A stretch of 55,837 nt of DNA, the filler included, from Jimgerdemannia flammicorona (lineage: Eukaryota): the NCBI GenBank assembly GCA_003990765.1. It is 3 parts of 3 records of this genome, joined end to end, with 100 filler letters (N's around TTAATTAATTAA, not from the genome) between each part and the next. Parts side by side here need not be neighbours in the genome. Positions count along the whole stretch, not along the records: positions 18,650 to 37,197 come from RBNJ01002183.1; 2 more parts are not named here. One strand, given 5' to 3'. Made by a program: the position numbers and the translations under genes. The notes under the pieces are model-generated. The model searched no databases. It worked only from the letters and a program-made list of their open reading frames with translations, and was not told where the DNA came from. This document shows, in pieces, positions 1-55,760 of this stretch. Within the stretch, counting starts at the first letter, position 1, and each line of letters begins with the position of its first letter.

Positions 1-28
<28 letters not shown>
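1..28 (+). repeat. Poly(A) run at contig start
   Basis: 28 A residues directly abutting a truncated LINE ORF2; either the tail of another retroposon or a homopolymer assembly break. Confidence 0.8.
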
Positions 29-31
<3 letters not shown>

Positions 32-2431: not shown

Positions 2432-2454
2432 TTGGAATAATGTTTAGAGGAAAG

Positions 2455-4471: not shown

Positions 4472-4544
4472 GACCTTAGTACCTTTCTCTAATAAATACT
4501 TTGAAGGTATGTTGTAAAAGTGTGCATAACATGAGTGGTGTGGA

Positions 4545-7500
4545 ACAAACTGCCTTTATTAACATACTCATCTATTATAATACATTGAGCCCACCCTTAT
4601 CCAATCTCTCTAGAAGGCCCCCCCCACTTATACTCTCTTGATTAAAGATCACTAGGTCATTAATCATCTCCACCCTTCTACTACTCTGCTTGCAGTTTCT
4701 CTCTATTAAATAGTAGCAATGCCTATCCTAAAGATGCCATCCAATCTACCACCCTATTAGTATATGTATCTCCCATCAACCCCTCCTACATATCTTAACA
4801 ACCTCTCCTGCAAACCTAACTATTGCTTCTCCTCAAAAACAAAGAGCCAATATCTAGTCAGCCCCACCTATACATCTAGAACCCACCTTACAGTAAGCCA
4901 CTCATTGCCCACACCTCCCACCAATCTGGTTCTCAATTCTTCCCAGCAACCTCTCTCCCCATCTGGTCTCCTTTTGACACTCAGCTGGTCACCTACAACT
5001 ATCCAAAAGTCCTCCAGAACCTCACACTCTTTCAACCAATATTCTGGTGTCTCTACAAATCCCCCAACTTATCCTATATTATAACACTCCTCATATTCTA
5101 GGAGTCCACCCTCTACTAGATATTTAGAGCAGAAATTCAACATGATATTCCTCCATAGCATCCACTACCATACCACCCAGAACTTGGGAGGAAGCCACCT
5201 CCGCACCTCAGTACTCTATGACCAGACTCTTGCCCAGTCCTACTCTCCTCAAATTCTTGCTACTTATCAACTGCTAGGTCAGAGATTCTGATCAAGTCCC
5301 TGCTGACACTCCACTCCATTATTAATATCAAACTCAATAAGTGGAGTGCCCCCCAATAGTAGTCTGTCCTATCTCCACATAGCTGGTCCCCATGGCATCT
5401 CTCCTTCATTGCTGTGCCAGCACAAGTCTATACAGTGTACTCTATCTGCCACCCCCTACTAGAAGCCATTATACTATAGCCAGCAGCTCCCCCCCAGACT
5501 CACCAGAGGCAGCAGATCTTCTGAGGACTCTCTTGGAGAGAATCTCATCTCCCACACCTTCAGCATCAGAGGCACCCATCTACCTCCTTGTAGTTCAACA
5601 GCCCACTTCAACCACTAAGCTCTCAGGCAGTTCAGCCTCTTAGAAAAATCCACCAGTCCTAACCCCCCTCAATCCATTGGTATTGAAAGGGTATTCCAAC
5701 TGATCTGAGACTGCCTTCCAGTCCAAATCCAATTCCTAGCCAGTTTTATCAGTTGCTTCAATACCTATGCCAGAAAGTTCAAATGATAGATAATATACCG
5801 CAGCTTAAGAAACCAGTATATATTCAGAATTGATACCTGGCCTATCAGAGAGATATGGTATTCTCCCCAATCTCTAAGAGCCTCTCTCTAGATGATGACT
5901 CTCCTCTCCTACCACATCCATGGCAAGATAGATCTATATACAAAAAGGAAAATGCTTAAGTACTACACAGCCTCCCCTATAGAGACAATTGTTCCAATAA
6001 CATCCTCTTCTACCAGCCCATTTTCCAGCACTATTGTCTCACACTTATACCAGTTGAGTTTTGCTCCAGAGTATACCTCATACCATTTCACTGTCTCCTT
6101 AAGTGCTTCAAAATCTGCTACTGATCTAAGTCCAACCACTATATTATCTGCAAGACCCCCATCTTCTACACCACCCTATAGATAGAGAGTTCTGTCACCT
6201 TCCATCAGATCCTATCCATCAAAGGTTCTAATGATAGAGTATATAGAATAGGAGACAGTGGATCCCCCTGAGGAACTCCTCTCTCTAAGAGAAATACCAG
6301 ACCCCAGTTACCATTATATATGAGTGCTGATCTACTGTCCTCTAACAGACCCAATATAGAAGGTTGAAATAGTGGGAGAATACTAATTCTGTCCAGCACA
6401 TTATTCAGCCACACCTGCCAAATGTGGTCATAGATTTTCTCTTGGTCCAAGAAGACCAATCTCCCATCCAATTTACTAGCCCAAGCCCCTTCAATGACTC
6501 TATAGATCCAAGCTATCTCATCTCTGATAAGTCTGCCCACAATAAAGCCCTGCTACTCCTCATCTAGTATGTATTGGGCAACCTTCTGTAATATTACTAT
6601 AATTACCTTATTACCATCTTCCTGTCCATATCCAGAAGCACAATCAGTCTTTAGTTCCCTTCTTCCCTTGTCCTTATACAACATGGCCATCAGTCAGAGG
6701 TCCTGTCCTCCAACCCACTTACCATCCAAAAGAACAAGGTCACAGAGGGCTGCTATCTCTCCTAATACTCCAGGGACCCTTGCCATATTCTTCCAAAAGT
6801 CCCAAGGTAATCTATTCTCTCCTGGTGCTGTTCTAAGCTTAGTCACCACAAGGACTCTCTGGATCTCCTCCTCTTGGACTAGTAGGATCAAATCCCCCAG
6901 GCCCTCTACCTATAGTGGCTCCCAATCCTCCAGAGTATTCCCAAATGCTTCAGCATTAATACTCCTTTTCTCCTCACTCTACAGACCCCTCTACTGCTCC
7001 TTCAGCAACCCCAAAATCTGTTGTGTACTATGTGCCAGCTCTCTCTCTGCATCAAGGACTCCATCTTAATGATTCTGCACCCTTCTCATCTGGAGGAGCT
7101 GTGACAAGTACCTTGTAGGCCTCTCACCCTTCTCAAGTCCCTGCCACCTCAGCCTAGCTACCATATCTTTCATACACATCTTCTCCTCCTCTCTTAGCAT
7201 CTATTGCAACTCCACCATCTCAAATATAACTTGCACCAACCTCCAATCATCTATCTCTCCTGAATTTAACAAATCAGCCCATTCCATTTATAGTCTGACC
7301 AACTTATTAGAAGCCGACCTTGCTCTTCTCCTGCTTTGCCTTCCAGCATCCCTACCAGCTCTACCCCAGTAGACCCTTGTAGCCTCTTTCAACTTTATCT
7401 ATCAGTTACCTACTGGTGGGCCCTCATGTATCCAACTAGTGATCTTCATCTAGATATTCTCTACTCAAGAGTCCCACATTGTCTTCTCAGCTAGCAGGGA

Positions 7501-8447
7501 GGAGTTAAGGTACCAATTCCAGATCTATCCCCTCTCTTCCCAAACTTCCCCTGTTCTAATAGTCTCCAGTGATCTGACCATGTCCATGCCTCCAGCATTT
7601 GGCTATCAGAATCCAGTCAATCCTTATATCTAGGCCATTTACCCAATATATATAGATCCTCTTTTCTCCCAACAGTATTCTACCCATATCCCCTAAGAAG
7701 CAAAGGTTCTCCATCTCCTCTCATATATTTAGACCACTACTTCTTCTACCTGTACTCCTCTCTCCATCAGTCCGATCCAACTGAAGGTCCCACACTATAT
7801 TGAAGTCACTATACAGAATATTTACTCCATCTGCCAAGAGAGCACCCTCCTCTAAAAGACCCTTGATCCATATGATCTGCTCACTTCAGACAGCAGGCAG
7901 TAGTAAGAGACAACTCTCACTGAATCCCAATCTGGTTGATTCCTTCCCCCTATACCAAATAGTCTCCCCAGTTCCTGATTCTACCTAAATCCCCTTTATA
8001 ACTCTGCATCAGAATAGCCACTTCACCAATCCAAACTACAGCCCCTCTTCATTTCCTAGTCTACTCCACTTGATCCAAATCATCCTCACATTGTACTTTA
8101 TATAATAGAAAGAGATCAGCCTCCAATCACTTAACCTGAGTAAAAATGTTCTTACACTGCCCAGAGCCCTATAACCCATTCACATTCAGAGAAAAAATGT
8201 AAGTTGTACTATTTATTAAGATTAATGTTTTTAGAAGATAGGTCCTTTTATAACTCAGTCCTCCTCTCTCTCCTTGCCAGATCTGGTCTCTGCTCTGCAG
8301 TAGACTTCACATTCACTAGCTTGTTCACCTCTAATCTAGCCAGAAGGTCAGTCAGTTCCACATCCTCCTTCTCTTCCATATTGTCTCTATACTCCTGGTA
8401 TACACCCTGCCAGAGTTAAAGTCCCCTCCTCTGCTCCCACCAGTATA
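4545..8447 (-). mobile_element. LINE family A, copy 2 (full ORF2 span + end of ORF1; cut by Gypsy LTR)
   Basis: RT motifs LVFLDQEKIYD and GVPQGDPLSPILY (6205-6540); AATAAA at 4560-4555; ORF2 start decayed to ATA near 8216. Confidence 0.92.
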
Positions 8448-9622: not shown

Positions 9623-12492
9623 TCAGCCCCCACTGAAGGATAGTCTGTCTCAGACTGTTCTTCAGTCATTATCCCAATAAGTATAAGCAGCTTCTGCATC
9701 TATACCAATTCTATCAACTTTATTATCTGTACTATAGTCACTCTATTCTAGGGGCTCCTCTTCTTTCTCAGAGAATAGAGTCTCAACTTGCTATATGATA
9801 CTGAGATAGATGGGTAGGATCAAACTTTAGAGATCATTTAGAGAGAACTGGGCCTAGATCAGAGCTGAAGGGTTCTATTTGTAGATTGTGTATAGTCTTT
9901 CTGTAGCAGTGATATTTCTTCTGGTCAGGCTCATAGTGTTGTAAATATAGGCCAGGTCTGGGAGGAGAAGATTCTGTAGCTGTTCTCCAAATATATAGTA
10001 GATCTACAGCTGATGAACTTGGAGTAATCTTGACCAGAGTGAGGTTTTTTTTGATGAATCCAAATTCTTTAAAGATATGTTCCATTGAGTGCTCAGAACT
10101 GTGGCAGAGGAACTGGTAGAGCTAGGAAGGAACTAAGGACAAGAGTCTGAAGACAGTTATCAATTCTCCAATTCATAGTGTAGAGAGAGATATATCTTGA
10201 AGCAATTGCTATATACTGGTATCCTCAGAGTTCATCCATCCAGGCTTCTTAATAGATGCTGGTTTCTCTGATATTATGTATAAGATAGAGTTCTTCCCAT
10301 TTGGGCCCCAGTTTGATGGTAAAGTTGATTTCAATTATACTTCTCCAAACTAGTACTTGATCTCTAATTTTGATCTTTTGATCCTTTAGCTTCTAGTCAT
10401 AGTACTTCTTTTGTCTTTCTTGAGCTTTGATAATCTGAACTTAGGCTTGATTACATAACTGCTCTGTCTTCTTGAGGAGATCTCCAAAGTTCTCATAATC
10501 AGTTGTTCTGGTTTTCTTAACAAACATCATCTCAAAGGACTTTTATTTAGTGAAGGCAACAGAGGTGTTCTAAATTTCCTATAGGATCTCAGGTAAGTAG
10601 AGGTTTCAGTTGGTAGGATTGACTTAGGCAAGTTCTTTCTTGATGGTCTGGTTTATTCTTTTTGTTACATATACCATTGGTCTGAGAGTGATATGATGTA
10701 GTCTGTTTGAGGTGGATCTTGTGAATTTAGATATAACTTGTAATTATGTTGTTGATGAATTCTGTACCTCAATCAGAGATGAGTTCTTCTGGGAGTCCAT
10801 ATCTGAGTGTGAGTCTATAGGGAAGTTCTACAATAGTCAAGACATCTGTAATTTCCATTGGGAAAGTGTTGGGGCACTTGGTCAGATATTTTACAAATAT
10901 AAGAATATACTTGTTTCACTTGTTTCTTCTTAGTATGTATTACTGGTTAAGTCTAATCACATCTACTCTCTATCTCTGAAAGATATTGTCTGGTAGTATA
11001 ATTGATTGTAGTAGTACTTAGTAGTTCTTTCTTCCTTGGTACTTCTGGCAGATATCACATTTTTTGAGTATGTCCCAGTCTTATATTCTGAGGTTAGCCC
11101 AATATTGGTATATTGTTCACAACTTTTCTTCTATATTCACTTGTCCTTGGTGGGCTTTCTGGTATTCTTTTCAGATGAGATCTTCTTATACTTTGATGAT
11201 CTGAAGAGCTTCTTTTAGGGTATAGTTTCTTGGTACACCATTCTTCTGGTTTATTAACATTATTATAAGCTTTCTCAGCTTTATAGATAATAGTAATTTT
11301 GTAATTCTAGAGGATAAGAATCCAGTGGGCTAGGATTCTGATAGGTTCCTTATAGTTGAATAGCTATTTGAGAGCTGCATGGTCAGTTATCAGGATGAAC
11401 CTTTTTCTGATAAGATAATGCTAGAATAGAGTGACTGCCCATATAACTACAATTTGGTGCTATCATAGTTCATCTGCTGCTAATTTGTAGCTCAGCTTAT
11501 ATAAGCTATTATATAGTATTATTAGTCAGATCCTCCTTGGGCTAGAACTGCTCCTATGCCATCTTTGGAAGCATCTGTATACAAGATAAATGACTTTTGT
11601 ATATTTGAGTAAACAAGAATTAATGCTATAGTCATACAGTACTTGAGTTTCTTGAAGGCTAGTTCTTGTGATTTTATCTATTTTTAAGGTACTTCTTTCT
11701 TGAGAAGGATTTGAATTGAGGCAGTGATTTGGGCAAAGTTTTTGATAAATCTGCTATAGAAGAATACTAGTATCAGAAAGGATAGTATTTCCTTTGGGGT
11801 CTTGGGTATTGGCCAATTGTGGATCTTCTCAGTTTTCTTTGAGTCTATATGGGTTCTTTCTTATAAAATTATGAATTTAAGGAATTTAAGTTTCTGTTTC
11901 CTGAAGTAGCATTTCTTGGCATTGAGCCTCAGGTGGTTCTTATGGGTGAGCCTGAAGAATTCTTTTAGGTGGTGCAGGTATTCCTTGAAATTTGCTGAAT
12001 AGATATTAGAATCATCTATGTATATGATCAGACAGTAGTATAACAGGGGGGCATAGACCAAATTCATAATTCTCTAGAAGGTGGGAAGTATATTACAAAG
12101 TCCAAAGAGTATTCAGAGATACTCAAACAGTTTTTCTAGGGCAAGAAAGGTTGTTTTCTGAATATCTTTAAGATCTATGGAGATCTCATGGAATCTCACA
12201 AAAAGGTCTATACTACTGAAATATCTGGTATCTTGTAACTGGTCCAAGAGGTTATCAATTCTGGGCAAAGGATAGGTATCCTTTTTAGTGACTGAATTGA
12301 GTTTCCTGTAATCTACACAGAGTCTCTATTCTCCTTTCTTTGGTATAATATGTATAGTACTGGCCCAAGGGCTGGTTGAGGGTCAGATGACTCCATTGTC
12401 TAAGAGTTCTTGAATGTATTCCTTTTTGAATATCTTTAAATAATGGGGTATTCTATAGGGTTTCTGCTGGATGGATATTGCATTTCTGTATT
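8448..12492 (-). mobile_element. Ty3/Gypsy element (family G1), 3' half: RT-RNaseH-IN-extra ORF-3' LTR
   Basis: QQKPYRIP at RT start (~12460), YIDD (~12020), FILYTDASKDGIGAVLAQ RNase H (~11540-11590), integrase tail KLGPKWE (~10300); RT-RH-IN order. Confidence 0.9.
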
Positions 12493-15900: not shown

Positions 15901-16799
15901 CAAATTCACAGCTGTGATAAAAACTAGTCGTATTGAACGGGTGACAGACATTTATTCCAATGTTCTCTTCTCACCGGAACCACCGTTGAGTCCGAAGAAG
16001 AAAATAAACAGCCCTGACGGATCGCGTAAAAGCAACCTGTACGCATACTAACCACTGAATGGTGGCTGAAGAGAGTGGTGGAACTGAGGGGTGGTAGCTG
16101 GGTTCTGCTGATGAAGAGGGTCTGGGAGATAAGGTGCTCACCAAGAGGGGCTACCGGGGATCTACTATCCTTGGTTGGGCTTCAAAATAGTGGACATATG
16201 AGGTTTAAGGGCTTCTGGTGGGAGTAGTTGATAGGGCTCACTGCATCAGAATTTGCTGGCAGGGGGATGAAGGAGAGGTGCCTTGGGGCCCAGGTGGGAT
16301 TGAGTGTTGCTGGGGGGCACCCTCCTTATAGACTTTGATATTGAGGATGGAGTCAAGTACCAAAGGAGGATGGAACAAGATGTATGGCCTCAAGGTTGGC
16401 AGATAGTGAATATTGAAGAGGAGTGGAACTGGAATGGAGTCTGGGCCTGGAGTGTAGAGATGAGATAATGAGTGCTGCCCAAGTACTGGGTGGTTTGGTG
16501 ATACATGCTGCAGAGGAATATCATACTCAACTTTCACTCAGACCACCTTATGGAGGAGGGGAGCTTTGACTGTGAGGAGTGCTATAATGTAGGACAAGAA
16601 GGGAAGTTTGTGCAGATATCAGAATATTAGCTGAGAGAGTGTATAGTACTTAGCAATTTTTGGTTGGTAGTTGGGAATAGGTTGAGTGTGATATATAGGG
16701 AGGATAGTAAGAGGGGTCACTGGGAGAATCTGAGAGATAGATTGGTAGGGGGGGGTAGGGAAGGAGTGGCTCACTTTGGGTTGAGTATTGACTATATGG

Positions 16800-18305
16800 T
16801 GTCACGTAGTAGTCGCTGAGTCCTTCAAATATGCCAGATTCTCTTCAAGGTGTATCTCTTAGACTAACTCAAGTTGTTATAAGCAAGTTCTTATTGGAGT
16901 GCCTTCCCAAGGTCTTATAGTCCTCAAACTTCTTATCTTTAACTGTCTTGTTATCTCTTAGATTGCTTGTAAGGGATTGTGTGTAAGTGAACTGGAACTG
17001 ACTTTATTTCAGAGGAAATAAGGGAGGTATTTATACAAAATATGATTCAATGGTTGCTAAGATATAAAGCTAAATATAAATTCCAATAACTAAAACTACT
17101 GAGTTCCAGAGCTGGCATTATTTAGTACTACATCAAAATACCGGTGCTGGAACAATTTCGCGTCACCTCAGAATACCAGTGCTGGCATTATCCAGTGTTA
17201 CATGAGAATACCAGTGCTGGCATTATCCAGTGTAACAAAGAACTTTAGAGCAGAAAGTTCAGGACCATGGGGGCTTTATCATCATCATCATCACTGAAGG
17301 AGATGAGATCCGCGAATTCGTCATGCAGGTCACGCATCTCGCGTACTTCGGGTATGTTGCATGGGATGACGTCATCGCCGATGACGTCATCACGTTCGGC
17401 GGGGAAATCGGGGACAAGATTTGGAGCTCTCCAATCTATGAGGTTCTCTTCCACAAAATAGGGGACAAATGTGGGGTCTTGGGGGGATCTAACCCAGATG
17501 CTTGGGCCTTAGAATACTGAGATCAATCCTTGCAGGAATTGGTCTGGGTTGTCCTGAAGGATAGGGTGCCAGAAGTCTTCTACTTCTTCACTGTTGAGGG
17601 TGATGGTGGACTGGGCTTCTGTAGCTACCCTGGCTTCTAGTGCATTGATGCAGCAGGATGACAGGTCTCTGAAGTCTGAGACTCTAACATACTCCAAGTT
17701 GGGGATCGACCATGGTGCATGCCTGAAGATCTGATGGATCTTCTTTGCTGTCCTTGCCTCACATAGGTCTATGGGGGTGGCATCTTGTAGCTCTTGAGGG
17801 CTGGCCTGTGGGAACTCCCAGCAGAGGAGGTTTCCTATTTCATACTCCTGCCATATTTGGAGGCATTCGGTAGTGATGGTGATTCTTGTTTCCATTTCAC
17901 GGTGGTAGAGGATAAAGTGATAAGGGTCTGCAGTACCCAGGTTGACGCTAGGAGTCCTTCTTGAGTGGGTCCTCATGGCTCTTCTAATGTCTTGAAACAT
18001 CCTTTCCTCGACTGAGATACCTTGATGATTCCTTGACCTTGAGGTTTGGCGGGCAGCAGGCATTTTGTTTGTGGTAAGTCTTTGAGCTATTTTGGGATTA
18101 GGGTTCTTGTTGGCTGCTGCTACTGCAGTTCCTTGATCCTTCTTTTATATTCTTCAGGATGCTTGTGCTGTGGTTACAATGACTCACAGTTGGTCATCGT
18201 TGCTCATCTCGCATGCTGTATGATCTTCTTGTACTCTGATTCTTGTGGCTTGTAAAGAAAGGCTGTCTCCTGTGCTGATATCATCATTCTGGGGTCACCG
18301 TTACA
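16800..18305 (-). mobile_element. Solo LTR (1506 bp) with 4-bp target-site duplication ATGG
   Basis: Termini TGTCAC...GTTACA; ATGG at 16796-16799 and 18306-18309; removal restores LINE sequence GACTATATGGATAGAG (cf. 55501 GACTATTTGGATTGAG); minus-strand TATAAATA (17035-17028) and AATAAA (17008-17003). Confidence 0.88.
17245..18063 (-). pseudogene. LTR-embedded accessory ORF, 272 codons with one internal TAA
   Basis: Track ORFs 17509-18063 and 17245-17454 are in frame with no other stop between them; homologous to 39613-38630. Confidence 0.75.
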
Positions 18306-18549
18306 ATGGATAGAGATAGGGCTAGTGGGTCATTGGCTGTTTGTGTTTGAGGAAGGGAAGCATTTGAGTCTGGGGGAGCAGTTGTTGAAGTGGGAAGGGT
18401 TGATAGAAGATATCTTGATAGGCTGGTGGCTGGGATGGAGTCTGTAGGATAGTCAGTAACACTGTTTGGTAGAGAAAATTTATAGGCAAAGTGAGGGGAC
18501 AGTTGGAGTGATAGATGGTAAAATAGTATTCAAATATGAGAGTATAGGG

Positions 18550-18649
18550 NNNNNNNNNNNNNNNNNNNNNNNNNNNNNNNNNNNNNNNNNNNNTTAATTA
18601 ATTAANNNNNNNNNNNNNNNNNNNNNNNNNNNNNNNNNNNNNNNNNNNN
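18550..18649. other. Artificial contig spacer
   Basis: 44 N + TTAATTAATTAA (stops in all six frames) + 44 N. Confidence 0.97.
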
Positions 18650-22125: not shown

Positions 22126-22974
22126 TTACCATATATCTTTTTTATTTGTCATAAATATAGATTAAATAAATCTTTTAAATATTTGAATATAAATTATAAA
22201 TAAAAATATATAATAATTTCAATTAGCCAAACTCATATAAGCATTTATATAATTATCAAATTCCTATTTTTATTTTATTTTATTTTTTATAAAAAATAAA
22301 ATAAAAAAAAAATATAAAAATAAATTATAATTTAATAGACTACTTTATATTATAATATAAATAACTTCAAATCCTTAATATTTGCTCTTAAAGTAATAAA
22401 AAAATTAAATATATTTAATATATATTAATATTACTATATTTATAAAGTATGCTTTGTTAAAAAAAATACCAATATAATAATATTAAAAGAGTTTAAATAA
22501 TTTAAATTAAATAAGTATTATATTTTATATAAATAATATTTCCTTTCAAATTTTATTAAAAGTAATTATATTTACTTATTTTTATTCTTAGTTATATAAT
22601 TAGAAAAAAAATTATATTTAGTTTTGATCTATATTTTATTAATACTTCTAAGCTTATTTTCAGTTTTTTTTTTAAAAAAATAACCAAATCTTTTATTATA
22701 TAGATATTATAATAAACTAGTTAATATATTTCTCTAAAGAATTAGTATTTTATTTTTATAATTACTATATAGAAATAATACTAATAATTTAATATATTTT
22801 AATTATAATTTTAGTTATATACTCTTTCTATTATATTATTTTATAAATATCTAATAATATAGATTTTCTAAATATAGATATTCTTTAAAGTAAATTATAT
22901 AATATAAATATAATTTAAATAGTAAGAATAATATTATATATTAAAATTTTTATTTCTAATATAATATAGTAGAT

Positions 22975-23329
22975 ACCTAATCTCAGAAGTATAGCAGATT
23001 TCTGTATTTTAGAAACTTGATCTTGTTCTGACTCTTATAGAGTTCTCAGAGTACAGAGGTGTAAGTTTGAAGTATATTTGCCTACAAACTTACTAGTTTC
23101 TTACTTTTTCTTTACTTTGAACTATTTTAATCTAAGGTTTATTTACACTAGATATTAGAATATTTATAGCAATAAAGTGGCTAAGTTATGACTATATTTT
23201 TTATAAGTCACTTTTCACAAGTATTGAATCTTTTGATATCTACTAAGATTTTAATATTTATAAGAATTTCAACATTTGCAGAATCTTAGCAATTGTTAAT
23301 GTTTTTATATTTATTGAATAACTAGCTAT
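22975..23329 (-). repeat. Older decayed LTR related to Gypsy G2 (target of the G2 insertion)
   Basis: Colinear with 23345-23700 but more A/T-shifted. Confidence 0.75.
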
Positions 23330-23791
23330 TGTAACATAGCAAACACTTAACCTTGGAAGTATATCAGATTTCTGTATCTTGAAAACTTAATCTTCTTTGA
23401 CTCTACAGAGTTCTTGGATGCAGTGGTGGGTGAGTTTGAAGTGTATCTGCCTGCAGGCTTACTAGTTCCTTGCTTTCTCTTTGTTTTAAACTATTTCGAT
23501 CTGAGGTTTATTCACTCTAAAATACTGGGTTATTTATACAAGTTTGTTAGCTATAAGATGGCTAAGTAATGAGTCATTTTGCAAGTATTAGATCTTTTAA
23601 CATCTGCTAGAATTCTACTGATTGCCAACTTTCTAACATCTCCTGAATCTTTGCAAACATTAAAGTTTCTGTACTTTGCAGAATATAACTGCTATTTGTA
23701 TGGCTATACTATATTGGAAATTGGGTTCAGGTACCATGATCAAATGTCTAATTCCCCTGATTCATGTTACTAATTTGGATCAACCATCACA
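23330..23791 (-). repeat. G2 3' LTR
   Basis: Direct repeat of 29572-30011; TG...CA termini; follows the PPT. Confidence 0.92.
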
Positions 23792-23832
23792 ACTTCCTTC
23801 TGAATAGGTGATTTATCTCTGAAATATCCTAT

Positions 23833-24198
23833 TCACTTGAACTCCCAGGCTTCTACAATTTGTATCTCCTTGTACTGTGTAATTTATGCTATTACATTCT
23901 TCCAGTATTGTCTCCTGATATATCCAAATTCTCCTGGAATTACTTCTTGGAAATGAGTTAGAGCTGGCTCATCATCCTTGAATAACTTGTATACTCTTTT
24001 GGCGATCATTATCTGAGTGTAGGAGAGCTGACATTCTCTGATCCAGTCTTCTTTTCTCATTTTTGGCTTTGAATTCAGTAGTTGTCCTAGTCTGAAGTAT
24101 TTCTGAAACTCGGTTCAGTTCTGGTAGGCCTTGAAGTGTGAAATTTGTAACAAGTGGGTCTGGACTATACTCTGGATGCTATTAAAGTATTCCTCCAT
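23833..24198 (-). pseudogene. G2 extra ORF3 downstream of integrase (~121 codons, two internal stops)
   Basis: MEEYFNSIQSIVQTHLLQISHFKAYQN*TEFQKYFRLGQLLNSKPKMRKEDWIRECQLSYTQIMIAKRVYKLFKDDEPALTHFQEVIPGEFGYIRRQYW... Confidence 0.65.
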
Positions 24199-24289
24199 TA
24201 TAAGTGGCTCAGCAGAACACCACTGTCTTTCTATGGCTCATTGGGTGGCACTTGTGATCTTGAGGGCAGCTGCATTACTTCATTGACTG

Positions 24290-27200
24290 TTTATGATACT
24301 TCTTGAGTCGGTTTCAGTAAATGGTAGTGGGGATGATGGTGCCTGAGAGTTTCCATAACTAAAAGGTAGTTCCTTTTATATCTTGCACAAGGTAAGGTCC
24401 TTTCCACTTAGGCTCCAGTTTTCATGACCATGAAGCTTCTACTATGTTCTGATATACTAGGACTTTGTCTCTTATCTTGATAATCTCTAGTGGCTTGTGA
24501 ATTTTTTCTGCATTATTCTGTTATAGTGTCTGCACCTTATTTATGTAATCTTTAGTCTTCTTTCTAATTTTGTATTGTTTTCATATCTCTGCATTCATAT
24601 GCTTCCATATAGTATCTCCATTAGATGATAGGGTTCCTTGGGAACTTTCTTCTCCAAATAGCATTTCTTGAGGGGTAAAGTGGGTGCTTTGTGATTGGAT
24701 ATCTCGGAGAGCAGATAATGTCATTGACAGATAGTGATCTCAGTTTTTGTAGTTATCACAGATCTTGACAATAACATTCTTAAGAGTCTTGTTGGTCCTT
24801 TCCATCTGTCTATTTCCTTGAGGGTGATAAGCTGTAGTCCGAATATGCTGAATCTTGTACTTCTTGTAGAGAACCTCAAAGAACTGGTTCACGAATTCTG
24901 TCTCTCTGTCTGTGGTTACTTACATTGGGGTCTTGAATCAGCAGATAATTTCTTTGTAGAAGAAATCAGCAATTGACTGTGCATTGGCTTCCTTGAGGGG
25001 TCCTGCCTCTATCTATTTGTGAAGAGGTCTACAATGATGATGAAGTATTGGTTACCAGTCAGGGTCAACTATAGAGGACTGATTACATCTATTGCAATGT
25101 GGGCAAATGGTGCTGGTTCTATATATGATGATTCTGGGGCTTGATTTTGTTAGTCTTGTTTCTGTTTCTGGCATTTGTCACATATCTTGACAAATTGTCT
25201 AATATCTTCCTCCATTCCTGGCCACTGCATTGTTCTTCTTGCTTTATTGTATATATTGGTTCCTCCTAGATGGCCAAGTTCATGTACTGATTGCATTGCT
25301 TGCTCCTTCTTGTATTCTGATATAACTAGTAGTTTTCCTTTCTTTAGTATTTCTCCATCAGTCTCAAATTGTTTCTATGTTCTATATTGATGATCATTTG
25401 TGTCCATTCTTCTAGATATTATAGCATCTTTCACTATCCCAGATATGTGATGATTCTATAGTAGAGTTCTTTATTCATGATTAATTTGCTGTTTGGGAGT
25501 CCTTCAGAGTGTCCATGAGAGGGCATCTGTATTGACATTAGTTCTTCCTGGGCAGTGCATGATTATTATATCATATACTTGTAACTTCATAATCCATCTG
25601 ATATAGATTTCTTTGGGTTGCCCAGTGGTCAGTAGCCAAGTGAGGGCTGAGTGGTCCATCTGGATGATAAAGTATCTTCCAGCAAGATAGTAGTAGAACT
25701 TTTCTACAGCCCAGATGACTACGAGATACTCCAACTTGTATAATTGATATTCTTTTTCAGCTCCTCAGGTTCCATGGCTGAGGTATGTAATGATATACTC
25801 TACTTTGTCCTTCTTTTGAACTAAGACTGCTCCTAGTCCTTGTGCACTTACATCTGTCTAAAGGATGAATTCTTGGGTCCAGTCTGGTCTTCTAAGGATG
25901 GGTGCCTGAGTCAGTCTGACCTTGAGCTCATCAAATGCTTATTGTTGCCTACCTGTCGATTGGAATTAGATGTCCTTTTTAGATTGGGCTTGTGATGTTG
26001 GAAAATCCCCTAATAAATCTGTGATAGTAGGAGGCAAGTCCCATGAAGGCTTGGACTTCAGTAATGGTAGTGGGTCTTGGGTATCCTGCTATTGCTTATA
26101 TCTTGAGGGGGTCCATATATATTTCATCTTGGTTGATAACATGACCCAGCTAGGAGATCTCAATTTCTGCAAACTTGTATTTCTTGGGCTTGATGTAAAG
26201 ACTATGTTCTCTCAGTTTCTCTATTATCTGCTGGATGTGCTGCAGATGTTCTTTGGCTGTCTTGCTGTAGATAATTACATCATCTATATAAACCATCATC
26301 TATCTTCTTATATCATAGTGGAAGATTTTGTTCATTATTCGCTAGAAGCTTGCTGGTGCATTGCACATTCTGAATGGCATTTGTAGGTAGATGTAGGTTC
26401 TGTCAGGGGTTTTGAAGGCTGACATTTCACTTACTGCTTTAGTGAGACCAATTTGATAGAATTCGGAGTATAAGTCCAAGGTACTGTAATACTGTACTTT
26501 ATCTCCTAGGGTTACAAGGATGTCACTGATAAGGGGCAGTGGTTGGTGATCCTTTTTATTGGCCAGATTGAGTTTTCTGTAATCGGTGCAGAGTCTTGGA
26601 GCGAATTCTCCTGGCTTGCTTCCTTTCTTTCAGGCTAGTATAACTGGTGAAGCCCAAGGGCTGCTGGCTTCTTTGATGATACCAGCTTCCTCCATCTGCT
26701 TGATTTCTTCTCTAAGCTATTCATGGTAGGCTAGTAGGAGGGGTCTTGCTTTCTAATAAATTGGTTCAGTGTCTCCTGTATCTACATCATAGTAGTAGTG
26801 TGGGGTCTTTTTTTTGATGTTCCTGAAATCTGTAGCAAGGACATTCTTGAATTCATAGAGTATCTTCTCAAGTTTCATTTTGAGTGGAAACTCATTTCCT
26901 ATGGTATAGCTATGCTTGTTTGTGGTTTCTTCCTTCTTGTGGTCCAGTTTGGTGATCTTGGTACTGGCAAATGCTCCTCTTCCTGTGGATCCAAATCCTT
27001 TTCTTCCTTTTTCTGTTTTATCCAGCTTCTTGACTTCCATGATCCTTAGCTGAAGAACTGGGAGGATCAACATCTGTGCTAGTCAGTCCTTCTTCTTGAA
27101 TGGAAATGGAATCATAGGATTGTGGTTTCTAGCAATAAGTAGTATTTCTCCAATATAATCGGAATCAATGACTCCTCCTTCAATTGTGATTTTGCTCCTA

Positions 27201-28213
27201 GCCTGGCTGCTTCTTGTCTTGAGGATTCTGACATGGTCTTTCAGAATGGTCATTTCCAGACCAGTTGCAAGTAGGGTGATTGTCTGGAATTCCAGTACAG
27301 TTTTCTCTACTGTGGTGATATTCATTCCGGCAGCATTTTCTGACTTGTATTCTGATAAGACTGCATTAGGGTAAATCTTCCAAATCTTGATCTTGATTTC
27401 CTCTTCATCATCACTGTCTTTGAGCAGAGCTGGTGGTTCATCATCCTCTTTCTCCCTTTTCTTTTCTTCTCTTACTTGTTTCTCAATGGCCTTCTCTCTT
27501 CTTTGATGGTAGGTTTTCTTGATTTTATCAGGACACTGGTAACACTCATTGATATACTCCATACAGTACATTCGGATCCCATGGGGGCAGACTCCTTGTG
27601 GTGCATATTCTTCTGTGATCTTCTTGCACCATTCTTCTTCACTCATCCATCCAACTTTCTTCTTTTTCTGAGTGGTCACCATGTAGGCTTCCTCTTATTC
27701 ACTCTCTTATTCCTCTATGTCAGACAGGACTCTCTTGTTGACATTGATAGGAATTCATATCTTCTGTCCTCTATAGATGATATGTATCTTCTGCACATTG
27801 AGGTCGATTATTGCTCTGGTTTTATGAAGCCATTGATTGCCAATGAGGATGTCATAGTTGGTTACATTGGTTACAATTACATCTACTGAGATGGTTGCTC
27901 CTCCAAACTTGATGGGAATATCTTTAATCTTTCCCAGAGGTGTGGCTCTTGTACCATCTGCTGTGATGAATACCAATTTGGTTGCTTCTTCAACCTCCCA
28001 ATCTAGATGGTCTACTGCATTTTTGCTGAGGAGGTATCCTCCTGCCCCAGTATCGATGATGGCTTCAAAGATTCTGTCTTCAATTTGGCAGATTGTATAG
28101 ACAAAAGTCTTGCAGTTGTCTTCACTTTCTTCTCCTGAGTCCTCTTGAATATTGTTGGCCTCAGTTATCTTCCATCCTTGTTCCTTAGTTGTTTTGGCAA
28201 GTCCAAACCTCAT
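24290..28213 (-). pseudogene. pol: G2 pol: aspartic protease, dUTPase, RT, RNase H, integrase
   Basis: IIDTGA (~28050), MVYIDDV (~26285), DHSALTWL and NTDAL (RNase H), KLEPKWKGPY (~24400). Confidence 0.92.
26980..27400 (-). pseudogene. dut: dUTPase domain within G2 pol
   Basis: All five dUTPase motif remnants: NAAGMNI, TRSS, GVIDSDYIGEI, D*LAQ (TGA where Arg is expected), RKGFGSTG. Confidence 0.9.
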
Positions 28214-28249
28214 TTGCTGTCTGAATGTTAGGATTTCTGCTAGCTGGCC

Positions 28250-29457
28250 AAAGGTTGCATTGACCTTTTATTGACTGAGATCCTTGAAGATATCATACTT
28301 GAAGGTCTTGGTTTTGCAAAGCTTCTTTTTCTTTTCTCCTTCACTAGCTGGAGTGGTTCCTCAGATGATATCTTGAACTGCTTGTTCCAGCTCTATATCT
28401 TGATCCATTTCTTCAGCTTGACTTTCTGTAGTGGTTTCTATCTGCTTTTCCACCAGGTTCTTCTTAGGTCTTCCTGGCAGTCTCTTGTACAGTTCTTTGC
28501 AGACATCTTTCTTAATAGTCTGGGCAGGATACACCTCTCATTCCTCTTCATCAGAGTCTCTAATTTCCTTAAATGTGATGATATTGGCCTGTTCCTTATT
28601 TCTAGTAGCATTGCTTGGCTGGGCCTTGTACTTGGTTTTGCTCATGTATTCATATGAGTAGTGGTCTTCCTCTCCATAGCTGTAGCAGGTACCTTTCTTC
28701 TTGTCTGTAGTAGTGGCAAACTTCTGAATTGGGTGGTGATCTCTTCCTCTGATTTCTTTTACTATATCTCCTAGGTGAGCAGTCATTTCAGCAAACTGCT
28801 TGGTGAGCTCCTCTATAGGGTTACTGTTTCTCTGCTGCTCTGTAGCTCTTGGCTGAGGTGTGTTTCGACTGATCATTGTGGTAGAGATTAACTAGTTGCC
28901 TTGGGTGCTTTGATTCCAACTCCAGTAACTCTTTCCATTATATGGTCTTGTGGGTGTCTGGCTATCTAATATTGCTGAGCATAGGTGATCTTCTGTGGCA
29001 GATCCAAGACTACTGGTGATAAGCGGATGGCCATAGTTATCTCTGGATGGACTCCTTTCATAAAGGTTGCTTTGGCTACTTGATCTCAGATAGCATCAGC
29101 ATAATCTGCAAGGATTATCTGATATTGGATTCTAGTATAGAATGTGTTTGGGTCCTCACTCATTCCTTGGTATATTATATTGAGCTGATCCTTCAGGGCT
29201 TGCTTGATCTCATTTATGTAATATGTATTTTGGAGCCAGGTCTTCTGTTCTATCAGTATAGCATTGGCATCATTTCCTGCATAAGTTGCAGCTGTGAATG
29301 CTGCTCTAGCAGGACCTCATAGGCTGAAGAGTATGAGAACTACTTGCTGTGCTGCCATCAGTGTCCTTACAGTGGCATACTGCTTAAAGTTATCAATGAA
29401 AGTGATGATTGATTTGTCTGAGGTATATCTATGGAATACTGGTAGTCTCATATCCAT
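28250..29457 (-). pseudogene. gag: G2 gag with decayed zinc knuckle
   Basis: Lies between PBS and protease; CYSYGEEDHYSYEY fits decayed CX2CX4HX4C spacing. Confidence 0.75.
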
Positions 29458-29571
29458 TTTGTCTAAGTATCTTGACTCAGTTTGTGTGGTTGTTTGAGTG
29501 GTGGCAGTTATTCATTATTCAGCTTAAAAGTGAGGGATTCATCTTGAATCACTAGCCAATGGGCACCAAGT

Positions 29572-30011
29572 TGTAATGTAGCAGATGCTTAACCTTGGAA
29601 GTATATCAGATTTCTGTATCTTGAAAACTTGATCTTCTTTGACTCTGCAGAGTCCTTGGATGCAGGGGTGGGTAAGTTCGAAGTGTATCTGCCTACAGGC
29701 TTACTAGTTCCTTACTTTCTCTTTGTTTTGAACTATTTTGATCTGAGGTTTATTCACTCTAAGATACTAGGTTATTTATACAAGTTTGCTAGCTATAAGG
29801 TGGCTAAGTAATGAGTCATTTTGCAAGTATTAGATCTTTTAACATCTGCTAGGATTCCACTGATTGCCAACTGCAAACATTAAAGTTTATGCACTTTGCA
29901 GAATATGACTGCTATTTGTGTGGCTATACTATATTGGGAATTGGGTTCAGATACTGTGATCAAATGTCTAATTCTCCTGATTCATATTACTAATTTAGAT
30001 CAACTGTCATA
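29572..30011 (-). repeat. G2 5' LTR
   Basis: Repeat of 23330-23791, about 22 bp shorter; followed by a TGG-starting PBS-like sequence. Confidence 0.92.
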
Positions 30012-37197: not shown

Positions 37198-37297
37198 NNN
37201 NNNNNNNNNNNNNNNNNNNNNNNNNNNNNNNNNNNNNNNNNTTAATTAATTAANNNNNNNNNNNNNNNNNNNNNNNNNNNNNNNNNNNNNNNNNNNN
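37198..37297. other. Artificial contig spacer
   Basis: Identical N44-TTAATTAATTAA-N44. Confidence 0.97.
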
Positions 37298-37517: not shown

Positions 37518-38389
37518 AAATGTGGCATCAGTTATGTATAATGAACTTCAACTGCATGGCTCAAAGTGCCACTGGTGAAGTGCGCGATGGATAACTGAGT
37601 ACATTCGTGACAGTTATGGGTCGATGATCACATGACGGATTATTCAATTCATGCAGTAATTGATAATGGGGAGGTCGTTTGGTTGTTCAATGGCTCAGGA
37701 CGTCGATGGCTCAATTGTTTAGTGGAAAAAGGTATTGTTGCTAACAGAGGGTAGTTATTATGCTGGCTAAGTTTCCTGGTGGCGATTAACTTGTCGGCAA
37801 ACTCGGCGACAACAGGCTTGCTCTTTATGCGGTCAATTAAAGTGGTCCATAGCGCAGTAGCTAGGAAAAATGGAGGTTGATGGCTTACTCATCCATCTTA
37901 ACTTGTTAGGTTCCTGGCAGTTGTTCGGGTCTTTGGCAGCAGGTCGGCCTTTGGTGGTCTAGTATCCTTTGGCTAGGTATCCTTGGGTTTCTGGGTCTTG
38001 AATCTCGAATGGCGGTCTCGAATACACGGTCCAAATGGCGGTCTGGTCTTGAATCCTTGGCTGGGTCTCGGGTCTTGAATGGCAGCAGTTGGGTAACATT
38101 TTCTTTCCATGGCAAGAGAAAATTCTTTAACTCAAACCTCGAGCAATCATTGCTCTAGTTATCTTGTTCTCAGAATTTATCCGGTCTCTTAGAGGCAGTG
38201 TGTTTTCTCTGTAAAACTATCTGGCTGAGGCTTTATTCACTCTAAGAATATGGGTTATTTATACAAGTTTGCTAGCTATGGGAGAGGGGGCGTGACTAAG
38301 GCTAAAGTATACTACATTGTGGCGAACTTATGCTATTGGTTTGCACGATGCGAGGTGCAGGCTATTGTTTACTACAGATTGGGTTGTAG

Positions 38390-38600
38390 GGGATAGCAAT
38401 GCTGGATTCGGACTTGCTGACAAAATGCTGAAAATGGCGGCACTGGATAGCAATGCTGAATTCGGATGAGCTGATATGATACAATGATTGTTGCCAGAAA
38501 TGGTTGTGGAGGGTGGCAATGCTGAATTTGGATCTGCTGACAAAATGCTGAAAACAGTGGTACTGGGTAGCAATGCTGGAAACAGACTTGCTGACAAAAG
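38390..38600. repeat. Imperfect ~54-69 bp tandem repeats in G3 LTR
   Basis: Four copies of GCAATGCTG(G/A)A, three followed by GCTGACAAAA. Confidence 0.8.
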
Positions 38601-38629
38601 CTGGGTTCTCATGGCTGATGGGTGGTACT

Positions 38630-39613
38630 CTAGAGGAAATAGTACCCTTTGTCTGTGGCGGGCAAATCTTGCTGGGTTGTGATTTCTTCTTCATCATATC
38701 TCTCCTCAAAGGGGGGAAGTGCCGGCCAAGAGGTGAGGGGGTAGAAAAGTGGCCAGTCATCTTCAACAATATTCTCCAACCCTTGAACAGCTTGAATGCG
38801 GACAGAGGACTGGTAGACTCTCTATTGCTCCTCTTCTTCTGAAGGCTCGTCAGTTTCGGTGTCAGAGGGGGTTTCTTCAGGGGCAGAGTCTTGGAGTTCT
38901 TGGGCCTCCTCTTCAAAGATAGGAACTTCTTGGACTTCTTCTTGATTCGGTTCCCAAATGATGAGGTGTGAATTGTGGCTGACAGGGTGGTGGGTGGTTG
39001 GAGTAGCTCCAACAGGTGTCTCTATAGTGATGGGCAGTCCTTCAAATATCTCTATAAGACTCATTAGGTGACCTTGATAGTTGTCTCAGAGTGGGGTGGT
39101 GTGGAAACCTAGCTGAGTAGGTTTGGTTTGTTAGCTTCCTATGGCAATGTAGTTGCTGCCAATAGTATTGGCTACTTCAGATTCTATCCAGTCAGCATCT
39201 TCAGTTGAAAGGTGGGAGAGGCTGCCAGCTGTTACTCCTTGCAAGTGTGCTATAGCCCAGGGAATATGGCGGAAGATTTGATGGACGTGGAGGGCTCTCT
39301 TGATTAGCAGGCTGGTGGTTAACATTTCGGCAATGAGGTCTTCCTGGTCGCCTTCTTGAGTCTCATTGCAAAGGCAGTGTCCGATTTCATAGTCATGCCA
39401 GAGGGTCATTTGTTCGGTAGTGTCTTTGAGCTATTGAGTCATTATATACCAGTAGTTGATGAAGTGTCCAAGGTCCTCAGTGTAGAAGTTCAAGTGTTCG
39501 GAAGTATCTGGGCACCAGATGGCCTTCTTGATAGCTTCAAAGATCAGGGTCTTTGGGTCAGGCAAAGGAGTAGAGTGGCGGGAGGTCTGGTTGGTTCAGC
39601 GAATGGGAGGCAT
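38630..39613 (-). pseudogene. LTR-embedded accessory ORF (~327 codons, several internal stops)
   Basis: MPPIR*TNQTSR..., then in-frame track ORFs 39131-39409 and 38822-39064; aligns to 18063-17245. Confidence 0.7.
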
Positions 39614-40662
39614 TGTGTGGTGGGTACTTGGTTCTTTGGTGCCAATCCTTGAGGCAGAGTATGGTTCCTTAAATAACATGGTCTTCATTTTGGCTCGGAT
39701 CATCTTGTCTTCTTTTGGAGTGATCACCTAATGGGTCAGGCTATCTATTTGATTGTCATGCCATTATGTCGTCTGATCTTAGCAGTCACCGGTACTCCAT
39801 TATCAATTGTGTACATCACACTAGTTTTAGAAGATAAAAATAACTCTTAGCTCTGAATTCTCAACAACTATAAAAGTCTGACTATTATAGATAATCTAGT
39901 AAATAAGTTTTTCTTGAAATAATTTTATAGAGAATCTTGGCTATTTAATATAAAAGAAATATTAATTAGTAATAAATTAATAAAATAGAAAATAAAAATA
40001 AAATAAAAAAGTTAATAAAATAATATTTTTTAAAAAAAATAATTCTATTCCTCTTGCTTGATAACTCTTATATAATTTATTAAAATATTTCTATAAATTT
40101 ATTATTGAGCTACCAATAAACTTATATGATATTTTATAGTAGTTTTATTTAGCTTTAGTATCTTCATTTTCTTTATACTTCTTTGTAAACTTCTTTAGAC
40201 TATACTTATTATAGCTATACTTATTAAAGCTATATCTGATATTGAAGTTATTATTATAGTATTCTCTATGAGTAGTAATATAGAAGATATATATATCTAA
40301 TATACTTAATTATAATATATTTAATTACTAAAGAGTATATATATATATTACTGTAAATCATATTATATAAAAGATTTGAATTCAAATTGAATTTCAAAAT
40401 TGATAACAGTGATGTTATCTAAAAAATAGCTATTTCAGAAAATATATACTACTTTTAGTTACTAAACTTAAGCTAAAATTTAAAAATTTTAAATTCAAAT
40501 CAAATTCAAATTAAATTAGATCTTGATTCAATTTAAATAAAATTAAATTAAACCTCAATTTAAATAATTGAATTGGTCCTCAATTCAATTTAAATATTTT
40601 AAATCAAATCAAATTAGGGACAAAATTTAATTTAATTTAATCTATTCTAAGTACTAATTAAA

Positions 40663-41029: not shown

Positions 41030-44000
41030 TAGAAGTATAGTAAATTTCTTTATCTTGAATACTTAATCTTCTTTAACTCCTCAAGTTCTCAGATATAGAG
41101 TGGGTAAGTTCAAAGTATATCTATTTACAGACTTACTAGTTTTTTATCTCTTTACTTGAACTATTTCAATCTGAGGATAATTTACTCTAGATACTAAAGA
41201 TATTTATATAAGTTTGCTTACTATATAGTAGCTAAGTTAGAACTTCTTTTCTGTGAGTTATTTCATATAGTTGAGAGATCTGTATATTTTTATAATTTGT
41301 ATAATTATAAATTTTATATAATTATATAAATTATACAACTGAGAGATTGAGTAACTACTATGCTATACTATATTAGAAATTGGATTTTAATACTATGATT
41401 AAATATCTATCTTCTGATTATTGTTTCTAATTCAGATTAACTATTATAACTTTCTCCTAAATAAGTAATTTTGCCCTCAGAATTACCTCATTAAACTCTC
41501 ATACTTTGATCAATAGTATGTTTTTATACTATATTATCTGCTCAATTATATTTTTCTAATAATATATCTTTACTTATCAGAAATCTTCTAGAGCTATTTC
41601 TTAGAAATTAGCCAGAGCTTACTTGTTATTTTTGAATAGTTTGTAGATTTACTTAGTAATAGTAATCTGGATATAAGATATCTAGCACTTAGCAATCTAC
41701 TCTTTTTTGGTTATATTTTTCTTTTTATTTAATAATTACTTTAACTGAAAGTACTCTTAAAACTCAGTACAAATCTGATAGACTTCAAAGTGTGAAATAT
41801 ATAATAGGTGAGTCTGTATAATACTTTAAATACTATAAAAAAAAAATCCTTTATAACTAGTAGTTTGGTAGAATACTATTGTCTTTTTATAGCTTACTGG
41901 ATAGTACTTGTAATTTTGAGAGTCAGAGCAATACTTTATTGGTTAGCTATAATACTTCTTAAGTCAGTTTTGATAGATAGTAGTGAAGATAATTATATAT
42001 CTAATAGTTTTTATAGCCAAAAGATAGTTTCTTTATATTTTATATAAGATAAAATACTCTAGTTTTCATAACTATAAAGCTTCTACTATATTCTAATATA
42101 TTAAAACTTTATCTCTTATTAATAATCTCCAAGAGCTTATAGATCTTTTCTATATTATTCTATTATATATAATACTTATACTTTGATTATATAATCTTCA
42201 GCCTTCTTTCTTATTTAATGTAATCTTTATATCTCAATATCTATACTATATCTCTATTGAATGATAGAGTTTCTCTAGAACTTTTTTCTCTAAATAGTAA
42301 TTTTCAAGAGATAAAATAAGTACTTTGTAATTATATATTTTAGAGAGCAGATAATGCTATTAGCAGATAGTGGTCTCAATTTTTATAGTTATTATAAATT
42401 TTAACAATAATATTCTTGAGACTCTTATTAGTTCTTTCTATCTATCTATTTCTCTATAGATAATAAGCTATAGTTCAAATATACTGAATCTTGTATTTTT
42501 TGTAGAAAATCTTAAAAAGTTAGTTTATAAATTCTGCTTCTCTATCTATTATTACTTACTTTAGTATCTTGAATTGATAGATGATTTCTCTATAAAAAAA
42601 AATCAGCAATTGACTATACATTGACTTCTTTGAAGGGTTCCACTTCTGTCTATTTTATAAGGAGATTTATAATAATAATAATATATTGATTACTAGTCAA
42701 GATCATTAGTAGAAAACTAATTATATCTATTACTATGTGAGCAAATAGTACTAGTTCTATATCTGCTAATTCTGATATCTAATTTTATTAATCTTACTTT
42801 TATTTCTGATATTTGTTACAGATATTGACAAATTGTCTGATATCTTTCTCTATTTCTGATCACTATATTATTCTTCTTACCTTATTATAGATATTTATTT
42901 CTCCTAGATAGCTAAGTTTATATATTAACTTCATTACTTATTCTTTCTTATGCTTTGGTATAACTAGTAGTTTTTCTTTCTTTAGTATTTCTCCATTAGT
43001 TTCAAATTATTTTCAGATTCTATTGATAATTATTTATATCTATTCTTTCAAATTTTGAGGTATCTTTTTCTATCTCAGATAGGTGATAATTCTATAGTAG
43101 AGTTCTTTATTTAGTTTGGTTTTACTAGTTGTAAGTATCTATGAGGGTATATCTATATTAGTATTAGTTCTTTCTAGATAATATATAATAGTTACATTAT
43201 AGGCTTATATATAGCTTCATAATCTATTTAATGAATATTTCTTTAAATTTACTTATAGTTAATAGCTAGATGAGGGCAGAATAGTCAGTCAGAATAGTGA
43301 AGTATCTTTCTACAAGATAGTAGTAGAATATTTCTACTGTCCAGATAACTGCAAGATACTCTAGCTTATAGAATTCATATTCTATTTCTCCACTGTGAGT
43401 TTCATAGCTGAGATATATATAATCACATATTTAACTTTTTTCTTCTTTTATATAAAAATAGCTTCTAGTTCAATTGAGTTTATATCTATCTACAGAATGA
43501 ACTCTTGAGATCAGTTAAGTTATCTCAAGATGAGTATCTAGGTCAATTAGACCTTGAGATATTCAAAAGCTTATTACTATCTATTAGTCTATTGAAACTT
43601 AGTATCCTTCTTGAATAGTTCATAAAAAGGGTCTACAATATTAGCAGTTACAGTCTATCCAAGATCTATCATAGTTATAGAAGTTCAAGCTTTCATAGAA
43701 CTTACTATCTATTACAGATAGTTTATTAAGAATTCTCCAAAATTTTAATAGAGTTTATATAAGTTCTAGTCTAATTAATAATATATCTGAGATAGAAGAT
43801 CTTAATTTCTGTGAACTTATATTTCTTTGGCTTAATAAATAGGCTATGTTCTCTCAATTTCTGCAAGATTTGATAGATATAGTTTAGATATTTCTTAGCT
43901 ATCTTACTGAAGATGATTATATGTATCATTCATATAGACCATCATCTATTTATTTATATTTTCTCATAAGATCTTATTCATTATTCTCTAGAAACTTACT

Positions 44001-49975: not shown

Positions 49976-50069
49976 GACCCAATCAATCTGCTTCTTCCAG
50001 TACCATTCAGGTTACACAACCTTTAGAAGGCACTTACAACATCATTTTTGGAGTAAAGAGACTAACAAC

Positions 50070-52105: not shown

Positions 52106-52122
52106 ATCAAATCATATTTATT

Positions 52123-55100: not shown

Positions 55101-55760
55101 CTAGTGGATGGCAAGGAGTTGGAATTAGAGAAGAGTGGGACTGGCATAGTGTTTGGATCTGGAGTGCCGCAGTATAAAAATGGATACCACCGAAGTACTG
55201 AGTGGTCTGGTGGTGCATGCTGAGGAGGAATGTAATGCTCAACTTCCACTCAGAGCACCTTATTATAGGGGGCTGCTTTGACTGTGAGGAGTGCCACAAT
55301 GTAGAGCAGAAAGGGGGCTTTGTACAGATGCCAGAATATTGGCTAGGAGAGTATGAGGTATTGGGAGACTTTTGGCAGATCATCAGGGACTACTTGGAGG
55401 TGAGACATAGGAGAGATAAAGTACAAGAGAGGTGAGAGGACTTGAGGGATTGATTGGTAGGAGGGGTAGGAAAGGAGTAGATCACCTTAGGTTGGGCATT
55501 GACTATTTGGATTGAGCTGGCTGGTCACTGGCTATTTGTATTTGAGGATGAGAGGTGACAGAGCTTGGAGAGCCAGTTGTCATGGTGGCAGAGACTTATG
55601 GAAGACACCTTGACAGACTGGTGGCTTGGTTGGGGGCTGCAGGGGGGTTGGAGGTACCACTTAGTGGAGAAAATCTGTAGATAGAGTGGTGGGAGAGTTG
55701 GAGTTATTAGTGAGAGGGTGATCTTTATTCATGAAGGGGTGGGGAGGGGCTCCCCTATGG
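52123..55760 (+). pseudogene. LINE-A ORF2: APE endonuclease, RT, Cys-containing C-terminus
   Basis: NMNGL, ADLFLLQD, GGDFN, APGEDGL, FLDQEKAYD, GVPQGDPLSP, FADD (~54233-54243), CFDCEEC. Confidence 0.93.

Follow-up and report, generated by a model that had tools for sequence, protein, structure and literature searches.

Additional open reading frames (ORFs) are common in long terminal repeat (LTR) retrotransposons; most of them are unexplained, and their origin is open. Among retroviruses, the sag gene of mouse mammary tumour virus (MMTV) and the nef gene of human immunodeficiency virus (HIV) are protein genes located in or overlapping U3, with membrane-linked immune functions. Sense-oriented additional ORFs of unknown function have been described between pol and the 3′ LTR of LTR retrotransposons (PMC7264820), while in bdelloid rotifers the ORF3 types, i.e., env, GDSL esterase, and DEDDy exonuclease, are common to diverse retroelements (PMC5408684). 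The Tas gene of foamy viruses is a 3′ accessory gene with an internal promoter in the upstream coding DNA, and its product combines an N-terminal binding domain with a C-terminal activation domain (PMC4929722). Template switching during reverse transcription shuffles LTR elements; it needs sequence homology and is described for close relatives (PMC6894440; all four papers are cited from excerpts). Here, we describe ORF3 of G2, a minus-strand Ty3/gypsy element with the Pfam order protease, dUTPase, reverse transcriptase (RT), RNase H, and integrase. It lies in a window, i.e., the whole analysed stretch of 55,837 nucleotides, from the 231-Mb repeat-rich eukaryotic assembly of Jimgerdemannia flammicorona (GCA_003990765.1). 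On profile evidence, ORF3 is almost certainly a remote homolog of ORF-A and ORF-B, which are located in the U3 of two other families, A and B. One unnamed gene family can be traced through five families of one genome and three architectures.

The preliminary description placed ORF3 at 23833..24198, between integrase and the polypurine tract (PPT). The Pfam domains and the tract itself (Table 1) bear out this position, and a gene does occupy the interval; however, its true start lies 32 codons further up, at 24294. The upstream start codon, which is ATA in the window copy, overlaps the end of pol and reads ATG in 27 of 30 G2 copies, so that the gene comprises 153 codons. Ten environmental proteins are 67–87% identical to an open ORF3 copy, and six of these likewise start 32 codons upstream. 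The gene is oriented in the sense of pol and ends 31 nt before the PPT; fully open versions were found in 5/17 colinear copies of the sister subfamily G2b and in 0/29 of G2. Between G2 and G2b, ORF3 differs at 0.25, 0.19, and 0.54 of the first, second, and third codon positions, respectively, with a net dN/dS of ~0.06 (a rough value, as dS is saturated), compared with 0.93 and 1.92 for the other frames of the same DNA. ORF3 therefore evolved under purifying selection, and the window holds a decayed, once-functional gene. As an additional ORF, it is present in most copies, lies between pol and the 3′ LTR, and is under selection. The older G2 copy, previously said to carry the gene at ~41480-41850, indeed does so (tblastn 41493-41843, 47% over 117 amino acids, E 7e-24). 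Transitions make up 88% of the decay among G2 copies (L091-L120), in which 80% of CpG sites differ, as against 18–24% of other C, and the GC content of old copies falls to 22–26%.

The motifs by which the likeness had been recognised by eye are located on the minus strand where stated (KYFRLG at 24102 and IAKRVY at 24006 in ORF3; EYEIGN at 17847 and TAKKIH at 17751 in ORF-A), and their register is that of the family alignments. There, Y/F-x-[ILM]-G and A-x-[RK]-[IV]-[HY]-x-[LI]-F are common to ORF3, ORF-A, and ORF-B in register. While ORF-A and ORF-B are 29% identical (E 3e-17), the core of ORF3 is only 12–18% identical to the LTR ORFs, and pairwise searches between them gave nothing significant (BLASTP of ORF3 against ORF-A, E 0.85). 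Profiles for hhalign were built from 44 distinct ORF3 copies (60 loci), 30 A copies, and 30 B copies. The G2 profile scored 39.0 with A and B combined (E 1.2e-5), compared with 12.1 ± 2.0 and a maximum of 15.9 in 60 column shuffles, and 35.9 with B (shuffle maximum 18.5); with A alone, the score of 20.7 was within the shuffle range (maximum 22.0). The profile–profile comparison proposed in the preliminary description thus yields a significant match to A+B and not to A alone. A joint-profile search of 1.84 billion proteins retrieved 19 matches at E 0.001, ten of which were looked up, and every one was unnamed or “hypothetical”. Furthermore, a profile of 11 distant proteins, none from the families of this genome, was run on the six-frame translated window. 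It matches ORF3 (independent E-value, iE, 5e-16), ORF-A (2e-13), ORF-B (6e-10), and the older G2 copy (2e-6); its match to the window copy of a further family, G1, is weak (2.9 bits, iE 0.029). Two observations limit this result, namely that these 11 proteins were originally recovered by a profile containing all three types, and that a profile of the LTR types only gives the decayed window ORF3 just 5.1 bits, with a shuffle maximum of 4.7. The profile matches join the three ORFs in one accessory gene family, as had been suggested.

The two architectures reported earlier are an undercount, as the family occurs in three: before the PPT (G2, G1, and the chromovirus C), inside U3 (A and B), and fused to the chromodomain of integrase. 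The sequence upstream of the ORF is unique in 14/21 A and 20/26 B loci, versus 1/29 G2, 1/19 G2b, and 0/29 C loci, which fits an ORF contained within LTR sequence in A and B; moreover, full-length elements of both families carry the ORF in both LTRs. Family C, in which a chromodomain was read, has a long ORF that terminates directly at the PPT, and the G1 gene was detected before the PPT in 26 of 30 loci (iE < 1e-3). The fused form is found in a chromovirus on a 2.8-kb metagenome contig (L243:1005-1874), where the domain follows integrase and chromodomain in frame, with the stop codon at the PPT; it scores 49 bits with a profile built without L243. A search of proteins of 600–2000 residues, which is weak evidence, revealed no other integrase fusions. 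Each of the five families of the genome has one copy of the gene at the 3′ end of its genomic RNA, and in G1 and G2 the gene start overlaps the end of pol.

A TATA-like word precedes the gene start by 60–90 nt in all five families, at −86 in G2 (28/30) and A (22/25), −62 in B (28/28), −60 to −74 in C (30/30), and −79 in G1 (at least 14/21); the shuffle expectation is ~0.02 per family, for patterns picked post hoc. In G2 and G1, the word falls inside integrase codons. The G2 version is present in the integrase of 28/30 G2 and 15/19 G2b copies and at none of 23 matched sites in the sister family A. These positions suggest a subgenomic RNA, which would be transcribed from a small promoter belonging to the gene and would end in the LTR.

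The integrase tree (19 rows) sets C and L243 apart from a group of B, G1, and the pair of A with G2/G2b. The A and G2 pairing has a support of 100/99; the two integrases are 70% identical, and the gag-pol DNA is 67% identical over 5.4 kb. In the ORF tree (27 rows), A instead joins C (97/97), and an A+G2 ORF clade, the group being taken from the integrase tree, is rejected by the approximately unbiased (AU) test (p 0.00027); ORF-A has 43% identity with the chromovirus C ORF and 12–14% with ORF3. The integrases of B and C are 31% identical; in the 3′ spacer, these two families have a single common DNA block (258 nt, 80–81%, non-coding; L125+L126:10825-11079 and L198:6463-6716), a possible cis element for which four loci gave no Rfam hit at the gathering threshold. 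Between G2 and G2b, 0.54 of third positions differ in ORF3 and 0.20–0.21 in integrase. This contrast, the clash of the two trees, and the B/C block indicate that 3′ modules move independently of pol. Since the place before the PPT occurs on both sides of the integrase tree, parsimony makes the position between pol and PPT the likely ancestral one.

The LTR-borne form in A was most likely imported from another lineage, and the sequences argue that a pre-PPT cassette was probably captured into U3 by exchange between lineages. The long form would have been copied from a C-like chromovirus element into the U3 of A and B via template switching, the cassette being inserted behind the recipient's own unchanged PPT, and family A would subsequently have lost its resident ORF3. 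No ORF3 remnant was found in the 320-nt spacer of family A. As a separate observation, this spacer (L136-L165) has one frame that stays open for ~90 codons from a fixed stop onwards and continues into the LTR.

The preliminary description favoured a shift of the LTR boundary, in which a resident gene enters or leaves the LTR when a new PPT is recruited on its other side. The order of the gene relative to pol and the LTR promoter is indeed constant, and G2 and A agree exactly in the spacing of the TATA word (−86). Nonetheless, family A retains a G2-type primer-binding site (PBS), PPT, and ~40 nt of flank; because the PPT and this flank are the same, the boundary did not move between A and G2. 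With the A+G2 ORF clade also rejected, the shift is unsupported for this testable pair. In addition, a G2 LTR profile matches 0/12 A LTRs, and the copies inspected showed no relic PPT behind ORF-A or ORF-B. More fundamentally, every capture into U3 amounts to an upstream PPT replacing a downstream one, and B and C, given their common spacer, could be such a pair; overall, we consider a boundary shift improbable relative to capture by exchange between lineages.

An alignment of 27 rows yields a confident fold model, with a predicted local distance difference test (pLDDT) score of 89.2. The encoded protein is soluble and all-helical, with a core of ~110 residues common to the LTR ORFs. Pfam and structure searches gave no significant fold or family match; the core (residues ~60–150) weakly matches ParB-type DNA-binding domains and DUF3102, all below significance. 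On account of these ParB-type rows, the location by the LTR promoter, and the acidic tail that some of the long forms have, we tentatively propose that the protein may bind DNA and activate or protect the LTR. It would bind the LTR DNA of the element through a helix-turn-helix-like core and switch on or protect the main promoter, as foamy-virus Tas does.

Alternatively, the protein could, like Rev or the Cer1 CERV protein, bind the RNA of the element and act in its export, packaging, or translation control. Its small helical form, the basic residues on a conserved helix, and the B/C block just upstream as a possible RNA target are in keeping with this role, which is rather unlikely given that no RNA-binding fold or family was found and that the block lacks the Rfam match mentioned above. 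The in-frame fusion in L243 and the overlap with the end of pol in G1 and G2 could point to a partner of integrase through which integration would be tethered to chromatin or to a host factor. However, the fusion is a single case on one contig, exchange across integrases only 30% identical speaks against a specific integrase contact, and tethering requires neither an own promoter nor a place in U3, making this role quite unlikely. The CpG-biased C-to-T decay among copies is strong and implies that silencing pressure exists, and, between G2 and G2b, turnover is faster in the ORF module than in integrase; both would suit a protein that counters host silencing through binding of a host protein rather than DNA. 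This is unlikely as well, since the protein showed no resemblance to known suppressors, although no search was aimed at suppressors. Such a role would be compatible with the proposed LTR regulator. The env position, finally, might suggest an Env-like fusion protein, or the ORF might be neutral captured DNA. In eight open family members, the top 19-residue hydropathy is 0.19–1.07, i.e., there is no transmembrane segment, as the preliminary description had stated; the signal peptide was judged from N-terminal hydropathy only. Together with the all-helical form, the 153 residues, and the strong frame-specific selection, this makes either option very unlikely, and the hydropathy and selection results led to their rejection.

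In this family, the promoter is open to testing, the structure model is confident, and a clash of the ORF tree with the integrase tree is documented. The family would demonstrate that an entire gene under selection can be housed in the U3 of a Ty3 element and that 3′ modules cross distant lineages. A broader, somewhat unlikely prospect is that Ty3/gypsy elements of this lineage carry their own trans-acting regulator on a swappable promoter-plus-gene cassette crossing chromoviruses and non-chromoviruses; its capture in U3 would then make every solo LTR a free-standing expression unit, and dead elements could regulate living ones genome-wide.

Table 1. Positions of G2, its ORF3, and related features along the window
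Feature	Position	Strand	Remarks
ORF3 of G2	23833..24294	-	153 codons; start codon ATA here; four in-frame stops; overlaps last pol codons
Candidate internal promoter TATAAAAG	24373..24380	-	Putative; inside integrase codons, 86 nt before ORF3 start
PPT of G2	23792..23801	-	Family A has the same tract and flank
3′ LTR of G2	23329..23791	-	~460 nt, no ORF; 88% identity to 29571-30004
G2 gag-pol	24275..29560	-	Gag region, protease, dUTPase, RT, RNase H, integrase (Pfam); interrupted by stops and frameshifts
5′ LTR of G2	29571..30004	-	Followed by PBS/leader common to family A
ORF3 of older AT-rich G2 copy	41489..41950 (ends approximate)	-	16.8 bits, iE 1.6e-6 by outside-protein profile
Solo LTR of family A	16800..18305	-	1.5 kb; 4-bp target duplication ATGG; interrupts a LINE
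ORF-A in U3	17245..18063	-	272 codons with an acidic tail; interrupted by one in-frame stop; TATAAAAG at 18149 (-86)
LTR of family B (5′ LTR)	37521..39820	-	2.3 kb; followed by PBS-like TTTTGGGGGC
ORF-B in U3	38627..39613	-	328 codons, several stops; TATTTAAG at 39675 (-62)
G1 homolog before PPT of the other Ty3 element of the window	9660..10176 (end approximate)	-	Frameshifted; other copies have ~170 codons; TATTTAAG within integrase, at -79

The window consists of three contigs, separated by gaps with the linker TTAATTAATTAA at 18550-18649 and 37198-37297. A partial, more decayed G2-type LTR (22946-23330) stands head to tail with the 3′ LTR of G2. A 48-nt block containing the TATA and poly(A) signals is 92–94% identical in the G2 and B LTRs (23507-23554, 29749-29796, and 38232-38279), the remaining LTR sequence being different. 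In G2, A, and B, protease is followed by dUTPase and then by RT (window 26402-29599, minus strand); family C has its dUTPase hit before protease. Families A and C also include tandem arrangements with a common LTR, preceded by a PPT and followed by a PBS, as well as internally deleted elements (L121, L043, and L196). Several elements resembling long interspersed nuclear elements (LINEs), with poly(A) ends, occupy 1-8442, 16059-18549, and 45200-55700, one of them being split by the family A solo LTR.

Among the papers listed by literature searches, none described this protein family. The present analysis contributes the fusion to pol, the candidate promoter word within the integrase codons, and the arguments against a boundary shift in its simple form. 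Like MMTV sag and HIV nef, ORF-A and ORF-B are located in U3, with no homology seen. The core weakly resembles the helix-turn-helix domains of ParB, KorB, SopB, and VirB, and DUF3102, without the nucleotide-binding domain of ParB. ORF3 is akin to the surveyed additional ORFs in place, orientation, presence in most copies, and unknown function; in the excerpted part of that survey, most sense ORFs are env-like and have membrane segments, and none is named inside an LTR, so that the present family differs (PMC7264820). As with the bdelloid ORF3 types of the excerpt, one accessory module is found across distant lineages and in dUTPase-bearing Ty3 elements, whereas the env, GDSL esterase, and DEDDy exonuclease families described there have no match here (PMC5408684). 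The likeness to Tas, as excerpted, lies in the 3′ place of the accessory gene, in the putative promoter in upstream coding DNA and, for the long forms, in the domain layout (PMC4929722). Searches of Pfam and viral structures gave no sequence or fold match to Tas, absence from such a list being no proof against it; the short forms lack the C-terminal tail, and DNA binding and activation are only predicted here. Finally, compared with the LTR swapping between close relatives in the excerpted review (PMC6894440), the partners here are distant, with integrases ~30% identical.
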